Source of the DNA: a bacterium
GTDB taxonomy: Bacteria; Patescibacteriota; Minisyncoccia; Phycocordibacterales; Zambryskibacteraceae
Reading direction: 5' to 3'
Length of the DNA: 64,000 nucleotides
NCBI GenBank assembly: GCA_023266935.1
Contig: JAHFOF010000001.1
Coordinates: forward strand, 27-64,026
Shown here: one piece after another, positions 4,145 to 23,684 of the stretch
Numbering within the stretch: position 1 is the first letter of the stretch
How the letters are laid out: every line of letters begins with the position of its first letter
The notes under the pieces: generated by a model
What the model was told of the DNA's origin: nothing
Seen by the model: the letters and a program-made list of their open reading frames with translations, nothing else
The model's database searches: none
Translations under genes and position numbers: made by a program

Positions 4145-4168
4145 TTTATTTATAGTGAGATTGTCGAA

Positions 4169-4702
4169 CTATGCTGATTTTTTACCCTGTTTTCGTTTGA
4201 TAACTTCATCACTGTATCTCATTCCCTTGCCTTTATAAGGTTCAGGTTTTTTTAGTGAACGAAGCTTCGCTGCAAATTCTCCTACTACTTCTTTATTCGA
4301 ACCTGAGATAGTGATGTTGTTTTTTTCTGCAGTTACCTGTAGTCCTTTGGGAATCTCGATATTGACTGGGTGAGAAAAACCGAGAGCAAAGACGATTGAA
4401 TCACCCTTTACTTCTGATTTATAACCAATACCTTCGAGAATAAGTTTTTTCTCAAAAGCTTTATTCACTCCAGAAACCATGTTTTTCAAATGAGAAGCAT
4501 AGGTACCCCAAAGTGCTCTGGACTCGAGGGTTTCCTTTTTTGGATGTATCGTCACTTCATTGCCATTCACCTTTATCTCTATCATCGGATGCACACTTTT
4601 AGAAAGTTCACCCAAAGGACCTTTGACCAACACCGAACCAGCGGAGAGAACAATCTCTGTTTTTTCTGGAAGCGTGATGATTTGTTTTCCTATGCGTGAC
4701 AT
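4169..4702 (-). CDS. rplF: 50S ribosomal protein L6
   Basis: 177 aa two-domain L6. Confidence 0.9.
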   Translation of the reverse strand: MSRIGKQIITLPEKTEIVLSAGSVLVKGPLGELSKSVHPMIEIKVNGNEVTIHPKKETLESRALWGTYASHLKNMVSGVNKAFEKKLILEGIGYKSEVKGDSIVFALGFSHPVNIEIPKGLQVTAEKNNITISGSNKEVVGEFAAKLRSLKKPEPYKGKGMRYSDEVIKRKQGKKSA

Positions 4703-4729
4703 ATGTTTATTTATAGTGAGCCTGTCGAA

Positions 4730-5116
4730 TTACCAAATGGTGAATAGAATTTCTCCTCCGACCTTTTCTTTGCGGGCGTCTCGGCCACTAAGGATTCCTT
4801 TCGGTGTAGAAAGGACTACTGCTCCGTATCCATTCTTCACCAAACGAATCTCTGAAGCTTTCTTGTAGATTCTTTTTGAAGTTTTAGAAATGCGAGCCAC
4901 ACCCTTAACCTTTGGGATTCGATTCTCCATAAGAAGGCTGACGATGAGTGATGGTTTGCCTCCTACAACTTTCTTTTCGGCACCCTTAATAAATCCTTCT
5001 TTTTTTAGAACATTGGCTATATTTTCTTTAATCTTTGAATATGAAAGTACGACATGATCCCTGCCGGCATTACCTGCATTCTTTATCCCTATAATCATGT
5101 TTGCGATTGGATCCAT
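4730..5116 (-). CDS. rpsH: 30S ribosomal protein S8
   Basis: 128 aa S8. Confidence 0.9.
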   Translation of the reverse strand: MDPIANMIIGIKNAGNAGRDHVVLSYSKIKENIANVLKKEGFIKGAEKKVVGGKPSLIVSLLMENRIPKVKGVARISKTSKRIYKKASEIRLVKNGYGAVVLSTPKGILSGRDARKEKVGGEILFTIW

Positions 5117-5129
5117 TTGAAAATTTAAT

Positions 5130-5348
5130 CTACCAAGATGCTTTCTTCACACCAGGAATTTTGCCTTCATTCGCCATTTCTCTAAAGCATATTCGACAAA
5201 GGTCAAAATCCCTCATATAGCCCCGCCCTCGACCACATTTGAAGCAACGATTAGTAGCCCGAGTCTTGAACTTTGGGGTCTTTTTTGATCTTGCGACTAC
5301 TGAAGTTTTGGCCATATTTACGAAAAAAGCTTTGAAAAAGCTAGGCAT
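5130..5348 (-). CDS. rpsN: 30S ribosomal protein S14, zinc-binding type (S14Z)
   Basis: CxxC...CxxC motif (CFKCGRG...CRIC) typical of type-Z S14. Confidence 0.85.
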
Positions 5349-5405
5349 TTAGCTTATCAAGATAGAGAGGGGTTGTCAAATAAGGCTTAAATGGAGACTT
5401 ACGGG

Positions 5406-5939
5406 CTATTTCTTGAACGGGAAACCTAGATGTTCAAGAAAGGCTTGGACTTCTTTCTTTGATTTGGCTGTAGTCACTACCGTGATAGCAAGACCGAAAA
5501 CATCCTTCAATTCCTCATCGGCTGTTTCTGGGAAGATATTATGCTCTTTGATACCCAAAGTATAATTCCCCATCTCATCTGCAGAGTTTATAGAAATACC
5601 ACGAAAATCTTTGGTTCTAGGGAGAGAAATATGAATCAACTTTTCCAGAAAATCATACATTCTGTTGCCTCGAAGGGTGACTTGATATCCGACCACATCA
5701 CCTTGTCTTGATTTAAAGTTAGCGATAGCTACCTTGGCTCCACGAGGAGCAGCTTTTTGTCCAGTGATGCGAGCCAGTCTGTCTGCAATCACTTTCATCT
5801 TGTTTTTATCTTTGAGTGATCCGACTCCAACAGAAATAACCACCTTTTGGATTCGAGGTGTCTGCATTTTATTCTTATAACCCTGAGATTCTTTTAGAAC
5901 CTTGAACGCATTATTGATTTTTGTTTTTAAGTTTTCCAT
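5406..5939 (-). CDS. rplE: 50S ribosomal protein L5
   Basis: 177 aa L5. Confidence 0.9.
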   Translation of the reverse strand: MENLKTKINNAFKVLKESQGYKNKMQTPRIQKVVISVGVGSLKDKNKMKVIADRLARITGQKAAPRGAKVAIANFKSRQGDVVGYQVTLRGNRMYDFLEKLIHISLPRTKDFRGISINSADEMGNYTLGIKEHNIFPETADEELKDVFGLAITVVTTAKSKKEVQAFLEHLGFPFKK

Positions 5940-5963
5940 TTTATTTATAGTGAGTTCATCGAA

Positions 5964-6182
5964 CTATTTTGCCAATTTTACTGTCGAAGCATAAATCGGC
6001 ATGGCTTTCTCTATGATTTGACCTTTGCCATCTTTCTTTTTGGCTTTCTCATGAATCTTTTTGATATTTATTCCTTCAACCACAACTTTCATTTCTTTAG
6101 GAATAGATTTCAAAATCTTGCCGGACTTACCTTTGTCCTTGCCTGAGAGTATTACCACATTGTCGCCTTTTTTTACGTGCAT
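5964..6182 (-). CDS. rplX: 50S ribosomal protein L24
   Basis: KOW motif KKGDNVVILSGKDKGKSGKI. Confidence 0.9.
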   Translation of the reverse strand: MHVKKGDNVVILSGKDKGKSGKILKSIPKEMKVVVEGINIKKIHEKAKKKDGKGQIIEKAMPIYASTVKLAK

Positions 6183-6191
6183 ATATTTATA

Positions 6192-7429: not shown

Positions 7430-7467
7430 AGTATTTGATAATAATTATTTATAGTGAGCTTGTCGAA

Positions 7468-8145
7468 CTATTTTTGAGTTGGAGCGTCCTTCTCAAAGAT
7501 GTCTCCTTTATAAATCCAAACCTTCACTCCGAGTGTCCCATAAGGCATAACTGCTTTGGTTGAACAATAATCCACATCAGCGCGGAAAGTTTGGAGCGGG
7601 ATTCGTCCGAGGTGACGATCCTCTGTACGGCTCATGGTTGCTCCTCCGAGTCGTCCTGCAAGGAAAAGACGAACTCCTAAAACATCTCTGTTCGCCATCA
7701 CCTTTTCAAGAGTAGACTTGGCCACACGTCGGAAAGGTAAACGCTTTTCTAGACCTTCAACCACCATTTGAGCAACAATTGTCGCATTTGATTCTGGAGA
7801 TTTGATTTCTTTAATATCAAGCTTCACTTCAACTTTTGGATTCAACAGTTTATGCTTGGCCAAAAGTTTTTTTATATCAATGAGAAGCTTTTGAGAACCA
7901 TCTCCGCTTCGACCAATAATCATACCTGGGCGTGAAGTAGAAACGATAATACGAAGAGCCTTTTCGCTTCTCTCAATTTCCAAATCAGCCACATAAAATC
8001 CCTTTAACTTTTTTTCCAAGAATTTGCGTATTAAAATATCTCCCCGAAGATTCTCTTGGTATTTGCCTTTAGGAGAAAACCATCGACTTTTCCAGTCTCT
8101 GAGAATTCCTAATCTATGTGAATATGGGTGAACTGTGTGTGACAT
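7468..8145 (-). CDS. rpsC: 30S ribosomal protein S3
   Basis: KH domain plus S3 C-terminal domain. Confidence 0.9.
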   Translation of the reverse strand: MSHTVHPYSHRLGILRDWKSRWFSPKGKYQENLRGDILIRKFLEKKLKGFYVADLEIERSEKALRIIVSTSRPGMIIGRSGDGSQKLLIDIKKLLAKHKLLNPKVEVKLDIKEIKSPESNATIVAQMVVEGLEKRLPFRRVAKSTLEKVMANRDVLGVRLFLAGRLGGATMSRTEDRHLGRIPLQTFRADVDYCSTKAVMPYGTLGVKVWIYKGDIFEKDAPTQK

Positions 8146-8541: not shown

Positions 8542-8883
8542 TTATTTTTTACTTTCAGTGGCACCCTTGGCTGCTTGAGCAGCACTGATTTCTGCTTCTT
8601 TTTTCTTTTGTTCGAGATCCTTCTGCATCTTACCTCCGTGTTTGGTGAACTTGCGAGTTAAAGAAAATTCACCGAGCCGGTGTCCAACCATATCCTCGGT
8701 GATAAATACTTCTATGTGATCTTTGCCGTTGTGTACTCCGAAGGTAAATCCGACCATTTCTGGAGCTATCTGGCATGCTCTGGACCAAGTCTTAATAACA
8801 CCGGTAGTACCGGGTTTCTTGCCCTCAATCTTTTTCAAGATTCGTGGGTCAACATATGGACCTTTTTTACTAGATCTGGTCAT
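8542..8883 (-). CDS. rpsS: 30S ribosomal protein S19 (C-terminal extension)
   Basis: S19 core GHRLGEF; lysine-rich C-terminal tail. Confidence 0.9.
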
Positions 8884-8918
8884 TAGAAATAAAGAAGCTC
8901 AAGACGAGCTGTCGAGAT

Positions 8919-8947
8919 ATAGTATAGAAATCAAGGCATATTGTCAA
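8919..8947 (-). promoter_or_regulatory. sigma70-like promoter for rpsS and downstream operon
   Basis: Minus strand reads TTGACA, 17-nt spacer, TACTAT; lies just downstream of a terminator hairpin and upstream of the rpsS ATG. Confidence 0.55.
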
Positions 8948-8956
8948 TAAATTCAA

Positions 8957-8982
8957 TGAAAAAGCCAGGAATGAATCCTGGC
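8957..8982 (-). terminator. rho-independent terminator after GC-rich gene 9010..9630
   Basis: Hairpin GCCAGGA-atgaa-TCCTGGC followed by a T-run on the minus strand. Confidence 0.6.
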
Positions 8983-9009
8983 TTTGGACTAGTACAGTCC
9001 CTTTTGTCG

Positions 9010-9630
9010 CTAGATCCCCTCGAGTTCCTCGAGAAGAACTGTCGCGATCCTCGCGTCTTCTTCTTCCTCAGCAATGAGCCGGTCGGTCTTGACGATTATC
9101 AACTCGCCCTTTCGTGTGACGAGAGCCCCCAACGGTTCGACGCCGGGCTGACGTTGAACCAGGTCAACACATACCAACCCATTCGGGTTCAGCCATGTGT
9201 GACAGGTCCAGACCGCGTCAGTCGCCAGAGTTCGAAGACCGGCTCGTGCCTCGATCGGAATCTCCGGCGCCGTCTCACCCTCAGCGAGCCGACGGTACTG
9301 AAGCACCGTTGCATGCCTGGTGGGCTTGCCCTGACAAACCAGATTGAAACTGTGCCCATCCACGAGATGCAGACCGTTCGCGGTGAGCCCAACTCGGAGC
9401 ATCGCCACCTGAATCTTCTGCATGTTGTTCATGGCCTGAACACCGCGTCCTACTCCGTTCTCGCGACGACGAGCAAGAAGTTCCTGCTCAGTTCTGCGCT
9501 CAATCGAGCGAATGCCCGGAGGAATTGATCTCAAACTCGGTGAAATGAATTTCACCGTGAGATCATCGATCATCCCAAGAGGAATGGGGTGGCTCTCGCC
9601 CGGTCGAGCCGAAGCGATTCGATCAAACAT
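9010..9630 (-). CDS. hypothetical protein; GC-rich (~58%), probable foreign origin
   Basis: 206-aa ORF; GC content far above surroundings; GGAGAG Shine-Dalgarno before the ATG; own promoter and terminator. Confidence 0.6.
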   Translation of the reverse strand: MFDRIASARPGESHPIPLGMIDDLTVKFISPSLRSIPPGIRSIERRTEQELLARRRENGVGRGVQAMNNMQKIQVAMLRVGLTANGLHLVDGHSFNLVCQGKPTRHATVLQYRRLAEGETAPEIPIEARAGLRTLATDAVWTCHTWLNPNGLVCVDLVQRQPGVEPLGALVTRKGELIIVKTDRLIAEEEEDARIATVLLEELEGI

Positions 9631-9703
9631 TTGATACTCTCCGTGGTGTTGAAGGGAAAAAGGAGACTTGGAACGAACACTGGATACTACTTATCTACTT
9701 TGT

Positions 9704-9732
9704 AGAGTAGCACACTTGATTTAAAAAGTCAA
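9704..9732 (-). promoter_or_regulatory. promoter/operator, copy 1 of duplicated element
   Basis: Minus strand TTGACT-TTTTAAATCAAGTGTGC-TACTCT; near-identical to the element at 10507..10535, including the downstream AAGTAGATA(A/G)G. Confidence 0.55.
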
Positions 9733-9750
9733 ATGGAGAATTTATTTATA

Positions 9751-9781
9751 TAAACAAAAGCCGCCCGATGTTTTGGGCGGC
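9751..9781 (-). terminator. rho-independent terminator after gene 9826..10449
   Basis: GCCGCCC-gatgtttt-GGGCGGC hairpin followed by TTTTGTTTAT on the minus strand. Confidence 0.6.
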
Positions 9782-9825
9782 CAGACTTTTAAGAAAAGTC
9801 TCTAACCTACTGCTCGCTGACTATA

Positions 9826-10449
9826 CTAGGCAGCGATGTCCTCGAGTTCCTTGGACAGGTCCTCAGCGAAACCTTCGTCCATCACCTGCTCCTGCAGAGC
9901 GACGACTTGCTTGACCTCGCTCTGAAGAGCAATGAGGTACTGATTGATCTCGTTGTAAGCCACAACGAGATCCTCGTAGGTGGCGTTCGACTTCGGGTCC
10001 AGAAGGTCGCGAAGCCGTGTCTGCAGAGAGAAAATCTCGTCGGCCTTGGCTTCCAGCACCTCCGGTGCCGTTTTTCGGATCACTTGCATCACGTTGTCCT
10101 GATGATCAAAGGTTCCTGAAAGGAACCCCTCGAACTTGTCATACAGCTCATCCGTGATGCTCTGCGCCATAGAAATGACGCGAAGGATCTGGCCGTCATC
10201 TGTCTTCTGCTTCGCTCGGACCTTGTCCACCTGCGCATTGCAGAACAGAACGAGCCTCTTGATGCTGTTGTCGGGGCCAGAGGGAAGCCGGAACCCGCCG
10301 AGCAACTTCAAGATGCCAAGGATGTACTTCATGTTCTTGATCGCGACGACGAGTTGCGCAAGCGGACGATCTTCCGGCTTTGGCTTGGACGTCTTTCCCC
10401 TACGGGTGATCCTTGCCTTCTTCTGATGTTTCTGCGCACTCGGGGTCAT
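9826..10449 (-). CDS. hypothetical protein; GC-rich; lysine-rich N-terminal tail and C-terminal coiled-coil
   Basis: 207-aa ORF; strong AGGAGG Shine-Dalgarno 5 nt before the ATG; GC ~58%. Confidence 0.6.
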   Translation of the reverse strand: MTPSAQKHQKKARITRRGKTSKPKPEDRPLAQLVVAIKNMKYILGILKLLGGFRLPSGPDNSIKRLVLFCNAQVDKVRAKQKTDDGQILRVISMAQSITDELYDKFEGFLSGTFDHQDNVMQVIRKTAPEVLEAKADEIFSLQTRLRDLLDPKSNATYEDLVVAYNEINQYLIALQSEVKQVVALQEQVMDEGFAEDLSKELEDIAA

Positions 10450-10506
10450 GATGCCCTCCTGGGCAATGTGTGTAGAGCGGTAGGCGTTTTTGCCTATCTA
10501 CTTACC

Positions 10507-10535
10507 ACGCTAGCACACTTGATGTAAAATGTCAA
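10507..10535 (-). promoter_or_regulatory. promoter/operator, copy 2 of duplicated element
   Basis: Minus strand TTGACA-TTTTACATCAAGTGTGC-TAGCGT. Confidence 0.55.
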
Positions 10536-10552
10536 GCATTTTATTAGACACA

Positions 10553-10580
10553 GAAAAGGGCTCTGTTTAGAGCCCTTTTC
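10553..10580 (-). terminator. terminator after the membrane-protein gene
   Basis: GGGCTC-tgttta-GAGCCC hairpin flanked by A-run and T-run. Confidence 0.55.
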
Positions 10581-10615
10581 CAAACTAATTTGAGTATTAT
10601 CTAGCGAATACTCTC

Positions 10616-11305
10616 TTAATTCTTTCCACCCATTTCTCCACGAAGTCGTTCGATGAATCGGCCAGCTGCTTCCTGTCCCCCGAGACCAAATGAAAGGCCA
10701 AGAGCGAGAGAGATAGCAATCACTATACCAGTGAAGAGAGTTTGGCTGAATGCTGCTGCAATACCAAGCTGAGAAAGAGCGACGAGTACTGCGAAAATCC
10801 AAACTGCCCACTTGGCCAAAGTTCCTGCGAAATGCGCAGAACGAACTTCAGCAGTCTTTGCTGCAGTAACCACGATTCTTTCTGTGACATCACCCACAAC
10901 ACCTCCAACCAATAGGATGAGGGCTGCGACGATAACACGAGGAAGATACGCGATAACTACTTGTTGAAGGAAAAGGTTAACTTGTGTGAGGCCTAAGATA
11001 TCAAAGGCTGCCACAAGGAAAACCAATATCACAAACCACTTGACCAAACCACCGATGAAAGCACCTGAATCGAGATTTACTCCACCTCGTCTTAGGAAAC
11101 TCTCAAATCCTGCTCGGCGAAGTGCCTCGTCCACACGAAGTGAACGGAAAACTTGCCAGATTGCTCGGCCGAAGAGTGCACCGATAAGCCATCCGAGGAT
11201 GACGATGATAAGGGCGATAACAAGGTTCGGCACAAAGTTCACTACTCCCAACCAGAGATTCTGGAAAGAAAGAGTCAACACTTGTTGCCATGTGTTTAGA
11301 ATCAT
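10616..11305 (-). CDS. membrane protein with conserved TM-helix repeats (MscS-associated TM_helix type, no channel core)
   Basis: 229 aa; repeated hydrophobic helices with AxxLG/FG motifs resembling the pfam TM_helix repeat; no Shine-Dalgarno. Confidence 0.65.
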   Translation of the reverse strand: MILNTWQQVLTLSFQNLWLGVVNFVPNLVIALIIVILGWLIGALFGRAIWQVFRSLRVDEALRRAGFESFLRRGGVNLDSGAFIGGLVKWFVILVFLVAAFDILGLTQVNLFLQQVVIAYLPRVIVAALILLVGGVVGDVTERIVVTAAKTAEVRSAHFAGTLAKWAVWIFAVLVALSQLGIAAAFSQTLFTGIVIAISLALGLSFGLGGQEAAGRFIERLRGEMGGKN

Positions 11306-11428
11306 ATGTTCTTAACTGAAAAATACTTTAAGCTTTTAAATACCACTATATAGGGAACGTATTTATTATATACCTCTTTATTTCTAAAAAATGGCTTAAC
11401 CGTGTGGACTGTGGATAGAGAAACAAAT

Positions 11429-11989
11429 TTAAATGCCTAATTTATTGAGGATTTTGTGATTTTGAGAGTCTAGTATGTCTAAAATAAGCTTGTCATACAT
11501 CCCAAATCTATAGTGGAAATCTGCTGTTTCAAACGCGGCATAGCGAATCTCTTTACCTAATTCAGCTTCTATCCCTGAAATGGCTTTGGTAATCTTGGGT
11601 TTCTTCAAATGATCCCCTACTATTAAAAGATCCACTCGTGCTTCATTATCATGAAGAAAAATGCCTGAAACTAAAATAAGTTTTACTACTCCGACCTTTG
11701 CTAATCGTTTAACTATTTCTTTATCAGAAATGGGGCCTACATCAATTAGAAAATCTTGGAGAGGTTTAAGATGCGGATAATCTTTATTCAATGAATATCC
11801 TCGAGAACGCTTCTTTAAAAGTTTGGCTTTAATTAATTCGTTTAAACTTCTTCGAACAGTATTAGTTCTTTCTTTCGTACGATCAGTTACAGTTCTAAAC
11901 TCATAGGTGCTATCAGGATTAAAAACAAACATACGAATAATCTTCACCTTGGCCTCCCCTCCGAATATGCTAGATACTGATTTAGTCAT
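11429..11989 (-). CDS. hypothetical protein with N-terminal winged-helix (TrmB/MarR-like) domain
   Basis: 186 aa; N-terminal wHTH pattern; C-terminal domain unassigned. Confidence 0.55.
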   Translation of the reverse strand: MTKSVSSIFGGEAKVKIIRMFVFNPDSTYEFRTVTDRTKERTNTVRRSLNELIKAKLLKKRSRGYSLNKDYPHLKPLQDFLIDVGPISDKEIVKRLAKVGVVKLILVSGIFLHDNEARVDLLIVGDHLKKPKITKAISGIEAELGKEIRYAAFETADFHYRFGMYDKLILDILDSQNHKILNKLGI

Positions 11990-12008
11990 GCGCCCATTCT
12001 ACACTTAT

Positions 12009-12035
12009 AAAAAAGCAAAAACCACCCGAGGATGG
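12009..12035 (-). terminator. rho-independent terminator after rplL
   Basis: CCATCC-tc-GGGTGG hairpin followed by TTTTTGCTTTTTT on the minus strand. Confidence 0.6.
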
Positions 12036-12060
12036 CTTTGCTAATTCAACGATTTATGGC

Positions 12061-12450
12061 TTATTTTAATGTAACCTTCCCCCCTGCTTCCTCGATTTTC
12101 TTCTTGAGTTCTGCTGCTTCTTCTTTCTTCATGCCTGCCTTGAGCATCGAAGGAGCTGCATCGACGAGGTCCTTGGCTTCTTTCAAACCGAGTCCGAGGA
12201 CTTCCTTCACTACCTTGATGACTGCAATCTTCGCTGCTCCACCATCAGTAAGTTCAACATCTGCTGTTGACTTCTCATCCTCTGCTGGACCGGCTACTGC
12301 TGGGCCTGCGGCTGCAACAGCTGTAGCTGATACGCCGAATTTGTCTTCGAATACCTTGACCAATTCGTTTAACTCTAGGACGGACATCTCTTCGATTTCC
12401 TTCACTATCTTTTCGAATTTAGCTGGTACTGCTTTTGTTTCGTCTGACAT
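12061..12450 (-). CDS. rplL: 50S ribosomal protein L7/L12
   Basis: Ala/Gly-rich hinge; C-terminal domain [19 protein letters not shown]...GGKVTLK. Confidence 0.92.
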
Positions 12451-12461
12451 ATTTTTAATGA

Positions 12462-12950
12462 TTAATTTTTAGTTTGAGCAATCTGACTAAGCGCGACTGC
12501 GAAGCGCTGAATTGGAGAATTGATGATATTCACAAACTTACCTCGCAAAACTTCGAGCGTAGGAATGAGAGCGATGTCTTCCATCTCTCTCTTGGTCATG
12601 TATCGTCCTTCGAAAACTCCACCAAGAATGTTTAATCCTTCTGGAAATTTTTTCTGGAAACCATATACTCCGCGAGCTGGTGCAACGAGGTCTTCTGACC
12701 ATGCGACTGCGAGTTCGCCTGAGAGTTCGGGTTGTTCACCACCAAACTTTTCATCGGCGAGCACTCGTTTGGTCAAAGATTTCTTGGCCACAGTATATGA
12801 GACACCGTCACCCTTTAAGGCTCGGCGCATGGCTGAAGCTTCAGAAACTTTGAGTCCGTGGAAGTTCACGAAAACTAGAGACTTGGCTCCTTTGAGCGCG
12901 CTCTTTAGTTTATCTACAATTTCTCCTTTCTTGATTCGTGATATTGCCAT
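12462..12950 (-). CDS. rplJ: 50S ribosomal protein L10
   Basis: 162 aa L10 family; immediately upstream of rplL. Confidence 0.9.
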
Positions 12951-13135: not shown

Positions 13136-13253
13136 CACTTTATAGAAAAACAGAATTTTGTCAATTATTTTTCAACCTTGATTTTTTCTACTAATACAGT
13201 TCCTTTATACATATTGTTTTCAAATTCGGTCTCTTGTTTAAGAACTTTGGTAG

Positions 13254-13281
13254 ATAAAAAACCCGACTTTCATGTCGGGTT
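13254..13281 (-). terminator. rho-independent terminator
   Basis: ACCCGAC-tttcat-GTCGGGT hairpin followed by a T-run on the minus strand, directly after the stop of ORF 13283..13564. Confidence 0.6.
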
Positions 13282-13647: not shown

Positions 13648-13674
13648 GATTTTACTTGTAGTAAGCTTGTCGAA

Positions 13675-14514
13675 CTATTTCTTGCCAACTTTTCTTCGGC
13701 GGACAATGTGTTTGTTTGAGTATTTCTTGCTTCGGCGAGATTTCTGACCCTTGCCTGTTGGCTTCCCATATACAGAAATAGCACGTCGGCGACCACGACC
13801 CTGACGACCTTCTCCTCCTCCGTGTGGGTGGTCTACTGGGTTCTGAGCTGTTCCTCGAACCGTTGGACGAACTCCAAGCCATCTGTTTCTTCCGGCTTTC
13901 CCAAGATTGATCAGTCTGTTTTCATCATTTGAAACTTCTCCAACAGAGGCCCACGCTGTTTCAAGAACCTTGCGAACTTCGGTTGAAGGCATTTTCAAAT
14001 CCACATAACCTCCATCTTTAGCAGAAACTTCTACATAATTTCCACCACTTCGAGCAATTTTCGCTCCGCCCTTTGGTTTGAGTTCCACATTATAAACAAA
14101 GGTTCCAACAGGAATATTTTTTAGAGGAAGGCGATTTCCGGCAGTCAAAGGTGCTGTTTCTGAAACTACATATGTATCTCCCACTCGGGCAGATTTATGA
14201 AGCAACACATAGCGTCTTTCACCATCTTTATAAGCGACCAAACCAATAAATCCACTTCTGTTTGGATCATATTCAACTGTTTTCACCGTGAAGGGCACAT
14301 TGATTTTGTTGTAAACGAAATCAATTTCACGAAAGAGTCGTTTGTGTCCACCTCCTTTGTGTCGAGTGGTGATTCGGCCTGTATTGTTTCGACCATTCGC
14401 TCGGCGAAAACCTTTGGTTAAAGATTTAGTAGGTTCATTTGTAGTGATGAACTTACTAAAATCAATCGATGAGTTCTGTCTCTGAGATGGTGATGTTGGT
14501 TTGTGTCGCTTCAT
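13675..14514 (-). CDS. rplB: 50S ribosomal protein L2
   Basis: 279 aa; conserved L2 C-terminal GGGEGRQ region. Confidence 0.95.
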   Translation of the reverse strand: MKRHKPTSPSQRQNSSIDFSKFITTNEPTKSLTKGFRRANGRNNTGRITTRHKGGGHKRLFREIDFVYNKINVPFTVKTVEYDPNRSGFIGLVAYKDGERRYVLLHKSARVGDTYVVSETAPLTAGNRLPLKNIPVGTFVYNVELKPKGGAKIARSGGNYVEVSAKDGGYVDLKMPSTEVRKVLETAWASVGEVSNDENRLINLGKAGRNRWLGVRPTVRGTAQNPVDHPHGGGEGRQGRGRRRAISVYGKPTGKGQKSRRSKKYSNKHIVRRRKVGKK

Positions 14515-14822: not shown

Positions 14823-14847
14823 GATTATTTATAGTGAGCTCATCGAA

Positions 14848-15534
14848 CTATTTTGAAGTTTGGCCAGGCAACACTTTGAGCGAAGCTTCAGGATTTTCTA
14901 TTACCACATATTTATATTTGAGCAGAGCAAGAGGATGAAGGTTTCGAGCTTCGAGTACTTCATAATTCCCCAGGTTTGACATCGCTCTCTCTACTTCTTT
15001 ATTTTTATGGGCCAGAGCAACAATGGCTGAATTTCTTTTTTTAGAAAAAATATTTTCAAAACCTTTAATCTTTGATAGATCTACAAAAGTTTGCTTGGCA
15101 ATTTTTGTTTTTGGTTCAGAAAAATTAATTGAATCGATGAACAACACTTCTCCATCTCTGAATTTTCTAGAGAGGATAGTATAAAGTGCCTTGGCTTTCA
15201 TTGATTTTGAAACTTTGCGTTCAAAACTTTTTTCGTTCCTTGGCCCATGAGTGATACCTCCACCAACCCAAATAGGCGAACGACGAGAACCGTGTCTGGC
15301 TTGTCCGGTTCCTTTCTGTTGCCACGGCTTTTTGCCTCCTCCACGTACTTCTGCGCGGTTCTTCGTATGAGCAACGGCTTTTCTAATGCTCGAAGTAAGA
15401 GAGGTGGAAACCTGGTGAACCAAATCAGAATTCCAACGCAAGTTAAAAAGCTTTTCAGGAAGTTTGATGCTTCCACTTTCTTTTCCTTTTGTGCTGTAAA
15501 TTTTAGCTTCCATTTTATTTTGACTTGATTTCAA
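14848..15534 (-). CDS. rplD: 50S ribosomal protein L4
   Basis: 228 aa L4. Confidence 0.9.
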   Translation of the reverse strand: MKSSQNKMEAKIYSTKGKESGSIKLPEKLFNLRWNSDLVHQVSTSLTSSIRKAVAHTKNRAEVRGGGKKPWQQKGTGQARHGSRRSPIWVGGGITHGPRNEKSFERKVSKSMKAKALYTILSRKFRDGEVLFIDSINFSEPKTKIAKQTFVDLSKIKGFENIFSKKRNSAIVALAHKNKEVERAMSNLGNYEVLEARNLHPLALLKYKYVVIENPEASLKVLPGQTSK

Positions 15535-16147
15535 CCAAAGTTCCGCGTCGTCCAGGAACAGCTCCCATGATTAGAATTTCATTTGTTTCGGGCAGAATCT
15601 TCATGATCTTTAAATTCTTGAAGGTCACACGATCGTTACCCATTCGACCAGCCATGCGCATACCTTTAGCCACACGACCTCCAGCTCGCGCTCCTCCTCC
15701 AATAGATCCCGGTTCTCGTTCAGAGTGTTTTTGCCCGTGTGAACGACGACCTCCTCCGAAACCATGTCGCTTCACTACTCCTTGGAAACCTCGACCTTTA
15801 GAGATAGCCGTCACAGTCACTTTCTCTCCTTCTTTAAAGATTGAAGAATCTATTACATCCCCCACATTCATTTCTGTATCTCTTTCATCCAATCTGTACT
15901 CTTTCATATGAGCAAACTTTTCGCCCTTCAGGTGTCCGGTCAAAGCTTTGTTGATGTTTTTTTCTTTCTTCTCACCGAATCCAATTTGATGTGCTTTATA
16001 ACCATCTCGAGTGATAGTTTTCACTTGAGTAATCTTCGAAGGAGTAGCCGAGAGGACAGTCACAGCGAAAGACTTCCCGACTTCGTCGAAAATTTGGGTC
16101 ATATTCACTTTTTTAGCAAGAAGAAATTTCATTTGTTTCATCGGCAA
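15515..16147 (-). CDS. rplC: 50S ribosomal protein L3
   Basis: 210 aa L3. Confidence 0.9.
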   Translation of the reverse strand: MPMKQMKFLLAKKVNMTQIFDEVGKSFAVTVLSATPSKITQVKTITRDGYKAHQIGFGEKKEKNINKALTGHLKGEKFAHMKEYRLDERDTEMNVGDVIDSSIFKEGEKVTVTAISKGRGFQGVVKRHGFGGGRRSHGQKHSEREPGSIGGGARAGGRVAKGMRMAGRMGNDRVTFKNLKIMKILPETNEILIMGAVPGRRGTLVEIKSK

Positions 16148-16165
16148 TGAACCGACAGTTCGAAC

Positions 16166-18535: not shown

Positions 18536-18826
18536 TCATTGATTGTTAGTGACGAGGTCTCGAGATTCGTATTTGGTCTTACGAATGGGTTCAAGGAGAC
18601 TCACTGCCACAATCCTGAACTTTTTGTCTTTGGACCTGTAGAGTACGAGTTCGATTCTACAGCGAAACTTCGTTCGACCGTCGCTTGGTTGCATATCTGA
18701 GGCATGAGCAACCACGTACTTCGTCACCATCCCATGCAAATGAAGTACAGATTGCCAATGAAAGTTGTCTTGGCTCCTATCACGCTCGTATCGAAATACG
18801 AGCTCGATAATCTTGCCCTTTTTCAT
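18536..18826 (-). CDS. hypothetical protein (96 aa), weak RelE/ParE-like pattern
   Basis: Basic small protein; C-terminal motif FRCRIELVLYRSKDKKFRIVAV loosely resembles the RelE/ParE toxin core. Confidence 0.4.
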   Translation of the reverse strand: MKKGKIIELVFRYERDRSQDNFHWQSVLHLHGMVTKYVVAHASDMQPSDGRTKFRCRIELVLYRSKDKKFRIVAVSLLEPIRKTKYESRDLVTNNQ

Positions 18827-18906
18827 ACGTTCCGAGAGTTGAAGGTATGAGAAACCGTGAACGTCTTATTTAAATCTGCCCCAAAGCAAGAAAATAGTCA
18901 ATAAAA

Positions 18907-19398
18907 TTATTCCTTTGCTGTCTTTACATAATCGACCACTCTATCCATATTGTTATTGATGTAGGCAATCCTATTGTATTTAGTCCACAATTCTTTTGCT
19001 TCTTCGTAGGAAATGGCTACCCCATCAACTTCACCAGTGATCACATCTTCATGAGTAGGTGACAAGCTGTTTATTTGTAATTCAGGTATAACATTGCCTG
19101 CGCTATCCAAATCTGTAAAACCCAATTTTGAACCCGATCTTGCAAATATATTTTTTAAAATAATTTTCTTACCATCTATTTCTCCAGTTATCACGGCTTC
19201 TTTCTGAACATCTCCGTTTTTTAAGTATGTTGGTTCGCTGATTTCTAATTTTAGATCTGTAGTTTTCAGTAATTCTCTTTCTTCGTTAGATAAATTGTTA
19301 AAGGCGTTTTCTCTCACAACAGAGCTTACTACTTGCTGTTCGTTCGCATTTTCGTGCAACATTTGCTGTGACTCTGCCCATGTTTTTGGTTCTTCCAT
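18907..19398 (-). CDS. hypothetical protein (163 aa)
   Basis: ORF between fusA and tuf; acidic; no family assignable. Confidence 0.45.
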   Translation of the reverse strand: MEEPKTWAESQQMLHENANEQQVVSSVVRENAFNNLSNEERELLKTTDLKLEISEPTYLKNGDVQKEAVITGEIDGKKIILKNIFARSGSKLGFTDLDSAGNVIPELQINSLSPTHEDVITGEVDGVAISYEEAKELWTKYNRIAYINNNMDRVVDYVKTAKE

Positions 19399-19489
19399 AA
19401 AATTTAACTATTTTTTAATTTATAAATTATAACATTAATAAAAAATCCCCGATTGGAGATTTTTTATTCTTCCGAGGAGACTCTCCGGA

Positions 19490-21655
19490 TTAGGCCTTCA
19501 CTCCTGTTCTCTGTTCAATAATAGTTGTGGCAACGTTTGGAGGAACGATAGCATAATGATCAAATTCCATAGTAGAAGAACCTCGACCTTCGGTCATGCT
19601 TCGAAGATTGGTGACATAGCCGAACATTTCAGAAAGAGGAACCATCGCTTTAATCACCTTTAATTCGTTTCTATCTTCCATCGCTTCGATCTGTCCACGT
19701 TTTGAAGAAAGGTTTCCAGTGATGTCTCCCATGAACTTTTCTGGGACAACAACTTCTACTTTCATAATTGGTTCGAGGATAACTGGTTTAGATTTTTTAG
19801 CCGCTTCTTGAAAAGCTTGTGAGGCTGCGATTTTGTAAGCGATTTCCGAAGAGTCCACATCGTGATACGAACCGAAATTGAGTTCACAAGAAATATCCAC
19901 CATCTTGTAGCCAGCGAGAATTCCACGTTCCATCGCTTCCTTCACCCCCTTTTCAACTGCAGGAATAAATTCTTGGGGAATAACACCTCCTTTGATCGCA
20001 TCGATGAATTCAAACCCTTCTTCTCGATGAGCATTCTTGGGAACTTTTTCTTCTGGATCATATTTTGGAAGAGGTTTAATTTTTATCTTGACGTGACCGT
20101 ACTGACCCTTACCTCCTGTTTGTTTAATGTATTTGTTTTCTACTTCGGCTTCACCAGTGATAGTTTCCTTATAAGCTACTTGAGGTTTGCCTACATTTGC
20201 TTCTACACTAAACTCGCGTTTCATACGATCAACGATAATTTCTAGATGGAGTTCTCCCATGCCCATGATAACTGTCTCGCCCGTCTCTTGATCTGATTTA
20301 ATTTTAAAGGTTGGGTCTTCATCCGAAAGTCGTTTGAGCGCCATACCCATTTTCTCTTGGTCAGCCTTGGTCTTCGGTTCGATGCGAAGAGAAATAACTG
20401 GTTCAGGAAAAGTGATTTGATCAAGAATTATTGGATTGTTCTCATCAGCAAAAGTGTGTGAAGTCTTTGCATCCTTCAAACCTACTGCAGCTGCGATCTC
20501 TCCGGCGAAAACTTTTTTCACTTCCTCACGTTTATCTGCTTGGAGACGAACGATTCGACCAAGTCTCTCTTTGTTTCCTGTAGTTGCATTATAAATATAG
20601 CTTCCAGATTCAATCGTTCCTGAATAAACACGAAAGAAAGTAAGTTGTCCGACGAATGGATCAGCTTGGAGTTTAAATGCGAGTGCTGAAAATGGTTCTG
20701 AATCAGAAGCGTGTCGAAAAACTTCTTCGCCTGTGTTCGCGTCAATCGCTTTAATAGGAGGGATGTCGAGTGGAGATGGGAGATAGTCAACCACAGCATC
20801 GAGCACGAGCTGAACACCCTTGTTTTTTAACGCAGAACCAGCCATGACTGGGAAAATTTTGTTGGCGATCACCGCTTTGCGCAGAGTTTCTTTGAGTGCT
20901 TCGATTGAAATTTCTTTCCCTTCCAAATAAGCATTCATCAGACCTTCATCGTTTTCTACTATTCGTTCAACCAATTCTCTTCGATATTTTTCTGCATCAG
21001 CTTTTAAATTATCTGGGATTTCTTTCTCAATGACTTGATTACCCATATTGCCTTCGAAGTAATACGCTTTCATTTTCAAAAGGTCTACAATCCCATCATG
21101 TTTTTCTTCTTCGCCAATTGGGATTTGGAATCTTACTGCTTTTTTTGAAAGTCTGTCGAGAATTGATTTGTATGAACGTTCGAACGATGCACCGGTTCGG
21201 TCAAGTTTATTGATAAAACAAATTCGAGGTACTTGAGCCTCTTCTGCGTAGCGCCAGTTGGTTTCAGATTGAGGCTCAACGCCAGCTACTCCATCGAAAA
21301 CCACAACCGCACCGTCGAGTACACGCAGAGAGCGTTTAACTTCTACGGTAAAGTCGATGTGCCCAGGAGTGTCAATAATATTAAAACGATATTTTTTTTC
21401 TTTATTCTGTCTATCAGCTTCAGGAAGATATGTTGGACCCCAGAAACAAGTGATGGCGGCAGCGGTGATGGTGATGCCCCTCTCTCGTTCTTGCTCCATC
21501 CAGTCAGTAGTAGTGTCTCCTTCGTGCACTTCACCGATTTTGTGTTGAGAACCAGTATAAAAAAGCACACGTTCAGAAGTAGTTGTCTTCCCAGCATCAA
21601 TATGCGCGATGATTCCAAAGTTTCGTACTCGTTCTAAAGGATAGTCTCGTTCCAT
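19490..21655 (-). CDS. fusA: elongation factor G
   Basis: 721 aa; AHIDAGKTT and DTPGH G-domain motifs; EF-G domains II-V. Confidence 0.97.
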
Positions 21656-21774
21656 ATAAGGTTAATTTTGGGCTAAAAATAAAAAGCAGTACCTGCTTAA
21701 GTAGGACTAGAATACAGGATCCAAAGGGAATAATCAAACAAAAACTCTCTTTCGGGAGATTTTTCTAATTATAG

Positions 21775-22044
21775 TCAGGGGGCTCTTTTTTCTTCTATAA
21801 ATGTTAAGAGTTCATCCAATTCACGAGCATCATTCAATGACGGGCCACCCACTATTTCTCTTGTACCCTCTTTCATAGCGCGCAACATCTCTTCAAATTT
21901 TTCAGAATATATACCTTTCTCGACCTCTTGAATAACTGACTCGTCTTCGGTTAACCTAGCCCAAAGAGATAATGCTGATGCCTTTTTTTCGTCAGACTCG
22001 TATAACTGTTTTTCAGGTTTTGGTATTTCTTCAGTTCCCATCAT
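21775..22044 (-). CDS. hypothetical small acidic protein (89 aa)
   Basis: ORF between the retropepsin gene and fusA. Confidence 0.4.
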   Translation of the reverse strand: MMGTEEIPKPEKQLYESDEKKASALSLWARLTEDESVIQEVEKGIYSEKFEEMLRAMKEGTREIVGGPSLNDARELDELLTFIEEKRAP

Positions 22045-22137
22045 TTTTATATTAAGCTACTATAATTAAATTATAACACGTAAAAACTCCCTCTCGGGAG
22101 TCTTCTGTTTACCAAGCGAAGTGAGTGAAAGCTTTGT

Positions 22138-22542
22138 TTATTTAAAATCTCTTTGTTTTAACTCGACCTCTTCTTTCAAGAGATCGAACTTAACTATAAA
22201 AATATCAAAGAATCTCCTTTGCCCAACCACCCCCCAGGGCATCACCCGACCAGCTACATCAGGCATAAACCCGGCCTCTATATCATAGGACCAACCGCCA
22301 ACTTCAATTTTAACTTTATGAAGAAAGTACAAAGAAGCTTTACCTCCAATACCAAACACTTCATTTTTCTTACCCTTTTCAATATCTATTCCAATAGCTC
22401 TGCCTATTTCTGCATCAAAAATGCAGAGATCTGCTCCAGAGTCCACGAGAACTTCATAGCCTATCTCTTTATCTCTTAACTTGAGTTTTATTGGTATGAC
22501 TGGTCGTAGAGTACTTCCGTATTTTGCATACCTAAATTTCAT
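22138..22542 (-). CDS. retropepsin-like (clan AA) aspartic protease
   Basis: VLVDSGADLCIF catalytic D-S-G-A motif plus GIGG flap-like motif; 134 aa. Confidence 0.75.
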   Translation of the reverse strand: MKFRYAKYGSTLRPVIPIKLKLRDKEIGYEVLVDSGADLCIFDAEIGRAIGIDIEKGKKNEVFGIGGKASLYFLHKVKIEVGGWSYDIEAGFMPDVAGRVMPWGVVGQRRFFDIFIVKFDLLKEEVELKQRDFK

Positions 22543-22544
22543 AG

Positions 22545-22757
22545 TTAAAAAGAACCCACAAATGCTGACAAATTTTCAGGTATGCGAGTGAGAAATGGAG
22601 TTTTTTCAGTTTTCTTCTGTGCTTTTAATAGAGCTTCTTTTAAGGTTTTTCCAAAACCAAGAACTGTCTCTTCGTCTTCTGCAAGAGCAACCCATTGCCC
22701 TTTATATTTTTTATATAGTGTAGTCCAATCTTTTGCCATACATATATTATTACACAA
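22545..22757 (-). CDS. small protein (DUF5678-like), partner of the retropepsin gene
   Basis: Motif YKKYKGQWVAL..ET..GFGKTLKEALLKAQKK resembles DUF5678-type small proteins; its stop is 3 nt from the protease start. Confidence 0.5.
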   Translation of the reverse strand: MCNNICMAKDWTTLYKKYKGQWVALAEDEETVLGFGKTLKEALLKAQKKTEKTPFLTRIPENLSAFVGSF

Positions 22758-22772
22758 AAACAGATGTAGGTG

Positions 22773-23243
22773 CTACCACGCAAAATGCGCGAAGGCTTTG
22801 TTTGATTCAGCCATCTTGTGAGTATTTTCTCTCTTACGAACTGCATCTCCTTCATTCTTTGAAGCAGAAATAAACTCTTCGGCGAGTTTCATATGCATCG
22901 GTTTGCCCTTCTTGGCTCTTGCTGCTTCTATAATCCACTTCATCGAAAGGAATTGTCGTCTTTCAGGACGAACTTCACGAGGAATTTGATAGTTCGCACC
23001 TCCAACACGACGAGAACGAACTTCCATAGTAGGTCCAGTGTTCTTCAAAGCTTCTTCGAAAACTTCCAAAGGATCTTTAACTTTCGCAAGTTCTTTAATG
23101 GCGTCGAGGGAACGATAAACCACAGCACGAGCAGTAGTCTTCTTGCCTTCGAGCATTAAATAATTAATAAACTTCGCGATCTTTTCAGAATTATAAACTG
23201 AATCTGGGGTTAATTTTGGTTTGGCTTTAAGTTTGCGTCGCAT
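22773..23243 (-). CDS. rpsG: 30S ribosomal protein S7
   Basis: 156 aa S7. Confidence 0.92.
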   Translation of the reverse strand: MRRKLKAKPKLTPDSVYNSEKIAKFINYLMLEGKKTTARAVVYRSLDAIKELAKVKDPLEVFEEALKNTGPTMEVRSRRVGGANYQIPREVRPERRQFLSMKWIIEAARAKKGKPMHMKLAEEFISASKNEGDAVRKRENTHKMAESNKAFAHFAW

Positions 23244-23270
23244 AAAATTATATATAGTGAGTTTATCGAA

Positions 23271-23684
23271 CTATTTTGCCTTAGGTTTCTTCATTCCGTA
23301 CTGGCTTCTTGATTGTCGGCGAGTCTCGACGCCGGTTGCATCCAAAACTCCTCGGACAATAGTGTATCGAAGACCAACATCCTTCACTCTTCCCCCTCGA
23401 AGCATAACCACGGAGTGTTCTTGAAGACCATGACCAATACCAGGAATATAGGCTGTCACTTCTAGGCCGTTCGTAAGACGAACACGAGCGATCTTGCGAA
23501 TAGCGGAGTTAGGTTTCTTCGGAGTCTTGGTGGTTACCTTGGTGCATACCCCTCGTTTAAAAGGAGAATTAAAGTAGGTAGGACGGTTTGTAATAGTATT
23601 AAACCCACGAGTAAGGGCCACCGCCTTGGATTTGCGAGTGAGTTTGTTCCTTCTTCGTCTTATTAATTGGTTTATTGTGGACAT
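23271..23684 (-). CDS. rpsL: 30S ribosomal protein S12
   Basis: [40 protein letters not shown] signature. Confidence 0.95.

Follow-up and report, generated by a model that had tools for sequence, protein, structure and literature searches.

A stop-anchored 26-nucleotide element recurs between the genes of ribosomal-protein and other operons in Parcubacteria

A 64,000-nt stretch of contig JAHFOF010000001.1 (GenBank assembly GCA_023266935.1; hereafter the window), from a bacterium of the Zambryskibacteraceae, carries repeated copies of a 26-nt element that starts with the stop codon of one gene and is in most cases closely followed by the start codon of the next. The element is widespread in genomes of the Parcubacteria/Paceibacteria type, which belong to tiny uncultured bacteria and encode ribosomal proteins (r-proteins) 44-87% identical to those of the window. 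We propose, tentatively and at less than even confidence, that it is a transcribed, stop-anchored intercistronic signal, which a trans-acting factor would read at or after translation termination so that expression of the next cistron is sustained.

An initial annotation of the window had described a recurring stop-to-start element at seven r-protein junctions. A search of both strands of the 64 kb with TTCGANNNNCTCACTATAAATAA, allowing up to three mismatches, returned nine matches against 0.05 expected by chance, a number reached in none of 100 shuffles. The seven minus-strand copies are real, and six lie where they were first placed; the rpsC/rplP copy is one base off (7445..7470, not 7444..7469), and two plus-strand copies (53778-53800 and 62056-62078) had been missed. 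All nine are co-oriented with their genes, seven on the minus and two on the plus strand, and in all nine the motif lies directly 3' of a stop codon (TAG seven times, TAA once, TGA once). An ATG follows 0-15 nt after the motif in eight of the nine, the exception being the copy after rplB. The distance to the ATG is short at most junctions, as first described, with a spacer at rplP of 15 nt rather than 17. The copies are listed below.

4146..4171 (23-mer 4146-4168), minus strand, 0 mismatches: rplF/rplR copy; TAG (rplF stop) + TTCGA-CAAT-CTCAC-TATAAATAA; rplR ATG 1 nt on.
4707..4732 (23-mer 4707-4729), minus strand, 0 mismatches: rpsH/rplF copy; TAA (rpsH stop) + TTCGA-CAGG-CTCAC-TATAAATAA; ATG 4 nt on.
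5941..5966 (23-mer 5941-5963), minus strand, 0 mismatches: rplX/rplE copy; TAG + TTCGA-TGAA-CTCAC-TATAAATAA; ATG 1 nt on.
7445..7470 (23-mer 7445-7467), minus strand, 0 mismatches: rpsC/rplP copy; TAG + TTCGA-CAAG-CTCAC-TATAAATAA; ATG 15 nt on.
13652..13677 (23-mer 13652-13674), minus strand, 3 mismatches: copy after rplB; TAG + TTCGA-CAAG-CTtAC-TACAAG-TAA; an intrinsic terminator next, no gene.
14825..14850 (23-mer 14825-14847), minus strand, 0 mismatches: rplD/rplW copy; TAG + TTCGA-TGAG-CTCAC-TATAAATAA; ATG 2 nt on.
23248..23273 (23-mer 23248-23270), minus strand, 1 mismatch: rpsL/rpsG copy; TAG + TTCGA-TAAA-CTCAC-TATAtATAA; ATG 4 nt on.
53775..53800 (23-mer 53778-53800), plus strand, 3 mismatches: weak copy between a UvrD-type helicase gene and KsgA; TAG + TTCaA-CATA-tTCAt-TATAAATAA; ATG 1 nt on.
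62053..62078 (23-mer 62056-62078), plus strand, 1 mismatch: copy between a TraC-like and a VirB4-like gene in a type IV secretion system cluster; TGA + TTCGA-CAAG-CTCAC-cATAAATAA; ATG 1 nt on.

Pfam matches identify the flanking genes (L4/L23, L2, S3/L16, L24/L5, L18, S12/S7, S19, L10, L12, S10), and S8/L6/L18 were identified from the gene list of the same genome; the names first given to these genes stand. The rpsH/rplF junction is a hot spot across Parcubacteria. The copy after rplB, described earlier as degenerate, is mostly a recurrent variant, CTCAC-TACAAG-TAA, found in at least six other genomes, and keeps one true deviation. The CTCACcAT variant of the TraC-like/VirB4-like copy recurs in at least five other genomes, and the UvrD/KsgA copy shows decay by G>A and C>T, the same pattern as in degenerate copies from other loci.

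An alignment of 150 rows gave the consensus (R)TAG-TTCGA-YNNR-CTCAC-TATAAATAA, or, written as a module, (R)TAG-TTCGA-YNNR-CTCAC-TA(Y)AA(R)-TAA. The module is strand-specific and 26 nt long, or 27 nt when the spacer measures 5 nt instead of 4 (about 8% of copies), and 22 of its bases are fixed. It opens with the three bases of the upstream gene's stop codon. TAG stands ahead of TTCGA in 134 of 162 copies, also where no long open reading frame (ORF) ends, and belongs to the motif, as the initial annotation had it. The same annotation held that only the central four bases vary; these do not vary freely. The two ends of the spacer covary (C..G in 84 copies, U..A in 44, U..G in 6, other combinations in 16; odds ratio 53), a linkage matched in 0 of 500 shuffles and present in the 5-nt spacers too, and purines occupy spacer positions 3 and 4 in 92-97% of copies. 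A second linked pair exchanges TATAAA for TACAAG, in at least six genomes.

No stable RNA fold was found in the element (minimum free energy -1 to -4 kcal/mol, z-scores -0.14 to +1.5). Pairing of the purines at spacer positions 3-4 with the invariant UU of AGUU is possible, with 94% of cells paired and changes on one side only; this weak AGUU/RRCU stem would fit the data, but it was set aside for want of two-sided covariation. Stop codons occur in all three frames, and ATG, GTG and TTG are absent. Coding or readthrough is rejected because an in-frame stop after GAY occurs in about 8% of copies (partly the author's own count), which equals the random expectation, and because 5-nt spacers shift the frame. 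Twenty-two fixed bases are also more than a mere spacer would need. Nor do subfamilies or bursts account for the Y..R linkage, since spacer types are not clustered within genomes (9 identical pairs versus 10.5 expected); it follows that there were no recent bursts.

Beyond the window, a scan of public data with the exact 23-mer, one genome per species, found it in at least 117 stretches; a collection of this size would yield about 4 by chance. Such matches are ascertained for perfect copies, and unbiased estimates come only from second copies and from relatives selected by L6. Among 80 titles of these stretches, nearly all carry Patescibacteria-type labels and the rest are uninformative, apart from two non-Patescibacteria labels. 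The listed matches include Nomura-, Zambryski-, Kaiser-, Giovannoni-, Harrison-, Vogel- and Niyogibacteria and Paceibacterota, with one label each of Roizmanbacteria and Gottesmanbacteria; the listed contigs with r-protein genes are all Parcubacteria-like. The L6 protein of the window shares 75-86% identity with proteins that bear the names Parcubacteria, Zambryskibacteria or Minisyncoccota. Some metagenome-assembled genomes (MAGs) labelled Saccharibacteria also carry the element. Their r-proteins are 55-87% identical to those of the window, the same range as in MAGs labelled Nomura- or Zambryskibacteria, and for that reason we do not trust the label. No copy was found in 813 kb of genuine TM7 DNA around rRNA operons. 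An earlier claim of spread across the whole candidate phyla radiation was withdrawn on these two grounds. The 2.9 million viral contigs of IMG/VR hold no copy, so a viral origin or use was dropped. Our literature search found no paper that gives the sequence or describes such a motif, in keeping with the initial statement that no known element has this sequence. In Rfam, there were no matches at E<=1 over positions 3500-24500, and only tRNAs reached the gathering score in the whole window.

The position of the element is tied to gene ends. Of the 130 exact copies, 112 (86%) directly adjoin the stop codon of an ORF 40 codons or longer; this stop is TAG in 103 of them, TAA in 8 and TGA in 1. At element junctions, stop usage is TAG 98, TAA 15 and TGA 1, compared with TAA 410, TAG 115 and TGA 74 at other junctions of the same loci. 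About 97% of copies outside the window are co-oriented with the flanking genes. A link to gene boundaries, rather than the scatter of repetitive extragenic palindromic (REP) sequences, had been suggested from the window and holds in the wider set.

R-protein genes lie downstream of about half of the copies (L6 19, S8 8, L24 8, L22 6, S11 5, L2 4). Other downstream genes are the C-terminal half of transketolase (7), the P-type ATPase copA after copZ (5-6), PilC (4), GroEL (2), ATP synthase (2), SSB and NusG; copies thus also lie between split transketolase halves and within copZ/copA, groES/EL and pilB/C, and they occur in secY operons. By the author's estimate, r-protein junctions are enriched about 10-fold over their approximate share of genes. 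In loci ascertained through another copy, 31 of 325 r-protein junctions bear the element, and rpsH/rplF is filled in 9 of 20. The element is frequent before rplF, rare before rpsS, rpsC, rplP and rplN, and absent ahead of the operon-first genes rpsL (0 of 4 loci) and rpsJ (0 of 4 loci). Empty orthologous junctions consist of a short coupled spacer of the TAAnATG type, for example tggTAAaaatATG, and not of a promoter. The initial annotation had listed a binding site for an autoregulatory protein among its options; a single autoregulatory r-protein is excluded, because the element is spread over unrelated operons.

Gain and loss were followed in relatives picked by L6 similarity alone, a choice that is unbiased for the element. 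The loci, designated here by L numbers, compare as follows.

L238 (GCA_964361165): 7 copies in 12 kb.
L239, L240/241 and L246: 0 copies in 20 kb each of the r-protein region.
L245: one decayed remnant.
L247: 1 copy and 2 decayed ones.
L248: 1 copy, with remnants counted here too, as for L245 and L247.

Absence from close relatives, raised initially as a sign against a functional element, is therefore a mixed result, L239, L240 and L246 lacking the element and L238 and distant Parcubacteria having it. Filled and empty orthologous junctions differ by one exact block, TAA-N(d)-ATG versus TAG + 20/21 nt + TAA-N(d)-ATG, which can be written with a target duplication as TAA versus TA[G..20 nt..TA]A. 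This holds at four junctions among the window, L238 and L240, namely rpsE/rplO, rplB, rpsC/rplP and rplN/rplX. At rpsE/rplO, the empty aaaaTAAttttATG of the window and L240 stands against the filled aaaaTAG-ttcgataaactcactataaa-TAAttttATG of L238. At rpsC/rplP, L240 has TAA and a homologous 15-nt spacer, from which the window differs by a precise 23-nt block; this junction is filled in only 1 of 23 other loci, and by this comparison the window copy is probably a recent gain. After rplB, L240 has TAA and then the same aatcaaaaaac..terminator, so that window and L240 once more differ by exactly 23 nt. No copy stands at the rplX/rplE junction of L238 and L240, and imprecise remnants are seen as TAAttcaaATG in L240 and TAAttcacatataaataa in L239. 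A 24-nt copy in L238 is placed on the stop codon of DUF2238 and falls within the 5' end of a beta-CASP RNase gene that overlaps there. New copies thus arise as a unit at the TA|A of stop codons, with or without a following start. A direct repeat of the AAATA type of at least 5 nt flanks 28% of copies versus 18% of background, with TA as the minimum; with so mild an enrichment, microhomology was rejected as a requirement for insertion.

Copies that persist are conserved. In two orthologous copies compared between the window and L238, 5 of 44 constant positions differ (11%), as against 7 of 8 spacer positions and 56% of fourfold-degenerate sites in the flanking genes, so the constant positions are under purifying selection. 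The initial view that both flanks of the spacer are selected is borne out, and the Y..R linkage, too, is kept by selection. Half of the unascertained copies with at most five mismatches (19 of 38) are perfect over 19 fixed positions. The initial annotation foresaw neither the exact block of 23/24 nt that is present or absent, nor the breadth of the taxonomic spread, nor the covariation inside the element.

Any explanation must cover the stop anchoring with its TAG preference, the fixed orientation, the intra-operon place, the 22 selected and unstructured bases, the dispensability in sister lineages and the unit-wise copying. Under the explanation that we tentatively favour, the element would be transcribed within the operon mRNA and would act as single-stranded RNA while a ribosome terminates on the upstream cistron. 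A sequence-specific trans-factor would read it, whether the post-termination ribosome, the release factor 1 (RF1) complex or a lineage-restricted RNA-binding factor. The next cistron of a stoichiometric operon would then stay translated by hand-over or re-loading of ribosomes without Shine-Dalgarno (SD) pairing. In its favour are the stop anchoring with its TAG preference, the co-orientation, the place inside operons whose products are tightly co-expressed, the SD-less genome background, the selection on the fixed bases and the lack of a stable fold.

A number of observations weigh against this explanation. The trans-factor is hypothetical, and no candidate was found. The closing TAA is most often separated from the ATG by 1 nt (33 copies) or 4 nt (16 copies), in a long-tailed distribution that extends from 0 to beyond 30 nt. 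At ordinary stop-to-ATG junctions, too, gaps of 1 nt (35) and 4 nt (47) stand out and 0 is uncommon, so the spacing mirrors ordinary gaps and has no constraint of its own. A terminator and not a gene follows about 6% of copies (window 13652, L010, L017, L021, L098, L100 and L105). One copy, in L065, follows a terminator at a distance of 55 nt and precedes tRNA-Val by 37 nt, and the interval contains no other promoter. Two antisense tandem copies lie between murB and hpf (L025 4987-5041), and three diverged tandem copies abut a divergent start codon as CAT|AG (L027 6394-6470). The beta-CASP insert of L238 adds eight in-frame residues, MN[SSTSLTTS]NPTLTC, and serves no downstream start. The lack of copies in the r-protein regions of the close relatives L239, L240 and L246 means that the element is dispensable. 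Finally, RNAduplex placed the 26-mer no better than chance on the 16S, 23S and 5S rRNA of Saccharibacteria, which is not an element-bearing lineage (25-37% of shuffles as good).

Some of these loci have further features. In L025, murB takes its final codons and its TAG (..IIYL*) from the reverse copies, which directly adjoin the ATG of a gene resembling those for ribosome hibernation factors; abutment of start codons as CAT|AG by reverse or tandem copies is seen in L025, L027 and L107. The 5' regions in L025 and L027, if transcribed, would be complementary to every element-bearing mRNA. L065 5600-5760, between two tRNA genes, has a canonical TTGACA-N17-TATATT promoter and an intrinsic terminator about 120 nt on, and is a candidate small RNA just upstream of the tRNA-Val copy.

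The block-wise gain and loss suggest another explanation, in which the element is a self-copying or neutral mini-insertion. A 23/24-nt cassette would enter TA|A with duplication of TA, survive at "safe" stops of compact operons and owe its constant sequence to the copying machinery. The exact filled and empty sites at the four junctions named above speak for it, as do the apparent recent gains without a downstream start (the rplB terminator of the window and the in-frame beta-CASP copy of L238), the reverse and tandem copies at CAT|AG, the patchy distribution (7 copies in 12 kb of L238 and 0 in L239, L240 and L246) and an ATG distance inherited from the empty site. However, neutral copies would not be expected to show the strong selection seen on orthologous copies (11% versus 56%), a rpsH/rplF copy common to lineages with r-proteins only 44-87% identical to those of the window, or the roughly 10-fold enrichment at r-protein junctions that the author estimates. 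Bursts are lacking (9 identical spacer pairs versus 10.5 expected), one orientation prevails by about 30:1 even though a reverse insertion is tolerated (murB of L025 ends ..YL-TAG), IMG/VR has 0 copies, the element has neither terminal inverted repeats nor a hairpin, and we know of no transposition mechanism that handles a 23-nt unit. We consider a mini-insertion unlikely.

In the same genome, just left of window coordinate 1 and between ndk and DUF2238, a cassette (L243 3102-5548) resembles, by its gene content, a diversity-generating retroelement. It encodes a 213-aa RVT_1 reverse transcriptase and two paralogous proteins with cysteine-rich C-termini, its genes have clear SD sequences, unlike native genes, and it is absent at this locus in L238, L239 and L240. 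Its reverse transcriptase was rejected as the copying enzyme, given the absence at the locus in element-rich L238 and the ordinary look of the retroelement.

Known short dispersed repeats are comparable in part. Like REP sequences and bacterial interspersed mosaic elements (BIME), enterobacterial repetitive intergenic consensus (ERIC) sequences and miniature inverted-repeat transposable elements (MITEs, for example Correia), the element is a dispersed, short, presumably transcribed intergenic repeat, situated between the genes of an operon or right behind its last gene and polymorphic among relatives; its presence/absence polymorphism comes with a TA target-site duplication, as in TA-targeting MITEs. 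In contrast to REP and MITE families, it measures 23/24 nt, sits exactly on the stop in a fixed orientation, and its copies are under purifying selection; the alignment shows no palindrome and no terminal inverted repeats between the element ends. Whereas those families are species- or genus-specific, its consensus persists in lineages whose r-proteins share only about 45% identity with the window's. On palindromy, orientation, position and cross-lineage identity, it does not qualify as a REP or MITE. Inspection also disposed of a DNA-uptake sequence, a dif/Xer site, a DnaA box, a T-arm or tRNA relic and a sarcin-ricin mimic, because symmetry or pairing is lacking or because the distribution is stop-anchored and gene-oriented.

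A long, contiguous, unstructured and strand-specific sequence is also what recognition of single-stranded RNA by a protein or guide would look like. On this basis, the 22 fixed bases could be a binding or processing site for a lineage-restricted protein, guide RNA or endonuclease that cuts the transcript, protects its ends in the manner of PPR10, or co-regulates a regulon of growth operons. Lineage-specific decay (remnants in L245, L247 and L248, none in L239, L240 and L246) would fit loss of an accessory factor, such a site would function just as well ahead of a terminator or a tRNA (L065) as within an ORF, and the enrichment in r-protein, groESL, atp and secY operons agrees with it. Chloroplast sites of the PPR10 type each belong to a particular junction, and dedicated helical-repeat proteins bind them. 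The element resembles these sites as an unstructured, conserved intercistronic stretch of about 20-25 nt in polycistronic mRNA, but differs in that one sequence occurs at many junctions. A free-standing site leaves the exact stop anchoring and strong TAG preference unexplained, the two covarying Y..R pairs are unexpected for base-by-base reading by a protein, copZA, pilBC and tkt make no obvious regulon, and no candidate factor was found for this role. We judge such a site unlikely.

A classical ribosome-binding site does not account for the element either. The SD sequence is a purine-rich core that pairs with the 16S 3' tail (anti-SD CCUCC) about 5-10 nt before the start. The element contains no GGAG, GAGG or AGGA, and an SD-like site is excluded because its composition and spacing do not fit. 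Like SD-dependent coupling, the element lies between the stop of a cistron and the next start in stoichiometric operons, is co-oriented and is presumably read in mRNA; unlike it, it has no purine core or fixed ATG distance, is stop-anchored with 22 fixed bases, and occurs in SD-less genomes. SD-like 4-mers at -18..-4 are not enriched, either in the window (3 of 81 genes versus 4 of 81 in the control region), in agreement with the initial remark that native genes lack SD sequences, or in the 117 loci (96 of 1120 versus 102 of 1120). Paceibacteria are reported to lack uL1 and Der (PMC12641178), and the anti-SD motif is reported as missing in about half of Parcubacteria, overlapping the uL1-less group (PMC9297842). 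No rRNA gene was found in the Parcubacteria loci examined. Saccharibacteria rRNA loci were fetched with a TM7-905 probe sequence; these TM7 loci have no 16S introns. Their 16S tail, GGAUUACCUCCUUUCU, is not complementary to the element and comes from a lineage other than the element bearers. The longest exact complements to this rRNA were 7-mers.

A more specific form of the favoured explanation makes the element the cis half of an SD-independent re-initiation system. The ribosome terminating at UAG would read the 22 fixed bases through RF1 or through an altered 16S 3' end of the anti-SD-less, uL1-less lineages and be handed to the next start, and the module would spread as a portable 23/24-nt cassette into TA|A stops. 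Taken as a whole, this combination is distinctly unlikely. Its closest conceptual counterpart is the termination upstream ribosome-binding site (TURBS) of caliciviruses and influenza B, which is located within the first ORF, ahead of its stop, and works by pairing with helix 26 of 18S rRNA. In both cases a specific mRNA sequence at a stop/start junction would keep the post-termination ribosome for the next ORF; in contrast to TURBS, the element lies downstream of the stop.

A further possibility is an internal promoter, used either by the host polymerase, on TATAAAT and the conserved 17/18-nt upstream block, or by a phage-type single-subunit polymerase, given a T7-like CTCACTATA. Leaderless-type promoters are part of the background. 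The signature TANNNT-N5-7-start precedes 27 of 81 window genes versus 7 of 81 in the control, TATAAT-N5-7-start occurs 36 times in the 117 loci versus 5 in a shifted control, and a canonical TGnTATAAT followed at 6-7 nt by ATG or GTG stands directly before many genes, also inside operons (window 24353 and 25509; L001-L117). That these genomes often put TGnTATAAT-N6-7-ATG promoters at internal junctions favours a promoter, as do TATAAAT itself and the TAG..CAC distance of 17 or 18 nt, which is the length of a promoter spacer. The settings of L065 (after a terminator and before tRNA-Val), L056 (terminator, element, then gene) and L027 (tandem array in a divergent intergenic region) would also suit one. 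However, the element has no -35 box, TG extension or T at -7 (TATAAA), and the six bases at the would-be -35 position are variable coding sequence. The commonest spacing, 1 nt after TAA and thus 4 nt after TATAAA, would place a sigma70-type start within the ATG or past it, and the distribution is not the tight N6-7 of leaderless promoters. Given also the absence at operon starts and the copies before terminators and between split-gene halves, a canonical promoter is unlikely; moreover, only 1 of 30 tRNAs in the examined loci (L065) has a copy nearby.

The resemblance to T7 is striking. In T7 phi10 (NC_001604), CTCACTATA matches the element at 9 of 9 positions and TAGTTCGA versus TAATACGA at 6 of 8. 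Like the class III promoters of the T7 group (TAATACGACTCACTATAGGGAGA), the element is a contiguous conserved block of about 23 nt before genes, with an identical CTCACTATA. The T7-group promoter runs contiguously from -17 to +6, its specificity region at -7 to -11 adjoining an AT-rich region at -13 to -17. Unlike it, the element has a variable insert of 4-5 nt between the recognition halves, which would break T7-type recognition, has AATAA rather than GGGAGA at the start site, is stop-anchored and is absent from operon starts. No RNA polymerase, and specifically no single-subunit polymerase gene, was seen among the window ORFs scanned against Pfam, a scan that several long ORFs fell outside. 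We keep this resemblance in sequence as a lead, and consider a promoter of either kind very unlikely overall. Upstream of T7 phi10 (L244, T7 22870-22910) the sequence reads TGATAGACTTCGAAATTAATACGACTCACTATAGGG, so that TAG and TTCGA stand shortly before CTCACTATA there too; this is probably coincidence, yet it adds to the resemblance.

Regulators that act during transcription offer one more comparison. The boxA site of NusB/NusE (consensus GCUCUUUAACAA) and the ops site of RfaH (GGCGGTAGNNTG) occur once per operon, in the leader, and ops is read by RfaH as a mini-hairpin in single-stranded DNA (ssDNA). Likeness to boxA is partial, at about 9 of 16 positions, and the element, unlike boxA and ops, has several copies per operon, at junctions and not in leaders. 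In an ops-like scheme, a Y..R mini-hairpin exposed on the non-template strand of the bubble would recruit a NusG paralogue that couples RNA polymerase to ribosomes on SD-less cistrons. The element is strand-specific, presumably transcribed and inside operons, a lone Y(NN)R pair with a 2-3-nt loop is sterically plausible in ssDNA, and decay in some lineages would fit an accessory factor. But copies at many junctions are not the habit of ops-type sites, a transcription bubble exposes fewer bases than the 22 that are fixed, no NusG paralogue is linked to the element, and the stop anchoring goes unexplained. This scheme is highly improbable.

Returning to the four mechanisms that the initial annotation had left unranked, we favour a termination-linked or intercistronic RNA role for the element. 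The leaderless-type initiation enhancer, or leaderless promoter, is disfavoured because the element is absent before rpsL and rpsJ, its ATG distance copies ordinary gaps, about 6% of copies precede terminators, and one copy lies inside an overlapping ORF.

Several features of the surrounding DNA were noted in passing. At the rpsJ/rplC junction of the window (16142-16165), TAA-GTTCGAACTGTCGGTTCATTGCCG-ATG has GTTCGA directly after the stop with the rest of the motif gone, which may be a very old remnant or coincidence. The S10 operon is split by about 4.7 kb (8884-13650), between rpsS (8542-8883) and rplB (13675-14514). The insert holds rplJ (12462-12950), rplL (12061-12450), an MscS-like gene (10616-11305) and four ORFs without a Pfam match; neither rplK nor rplA adjoins rplJ in the window, and the split arrangement is also found in the relatives L240, L245 and L246. 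The str operon is interrupted as well (18536-22757), reading rpsL-rpsG, three small ORFs, fusA, two ORFs, tuf and rpsJ. The small ORFs include a retropepsin-like Asp_protease_2 (22138-22542), and the two between fusA and tuf (18907-19398 and 18536-18826) have no assigned identity. A type IV secretion/conjugation-like cluster at 55676-63963, with PrgI, TraC-like, VirB4/TraG P-loop ATPase, TrbL_3-like and large uncharacterised proteins, holds one element copy (62053-62078). In other Parcubacteria, r-protein junctions are filled by different short tandem-like repeats, for example GATTTAGGATTTAAGATTT, AATTGAAAATTGAGAAC and CCTAGAACCTAGGACCTAG, and such intercistronic "fillers" may be a wider phenomenon in this group. 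The filler junctions are as follows.

L248 7385-7461.
L015 6308.
L023 1228.
L012 2345 and 3288.
L113 2986.
L060 4024.
L030, upstream of rplX.

No described signal corresponds to the element, which is probably a novel means of relaying expression from one gene to the next. Much of bacterial diversity belongs to the Patescibacteria; gene expression in them is almost uncharted, and many of them lack SD/anti-SD pairing and several ribosomal components. A 26-nt signal that is near-invariant in deeply diverged Parcubacteria and welded to the stops of their most highly expressed operons is a testable handle on how polycistronic mRNAs without SD sequences are translated or processed, and its block-wise gain and loss provide natural pairs with and without it in sister genomes. 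It is also a sharp taxonomic marker, and it matters for gene calling, both for start codons and for in-frame inserts such as that in the beta-CASP gene of L238. Its precise gain further raises the question of how a repeat-free unit of 23 nt is copied so exactly into stop codons.

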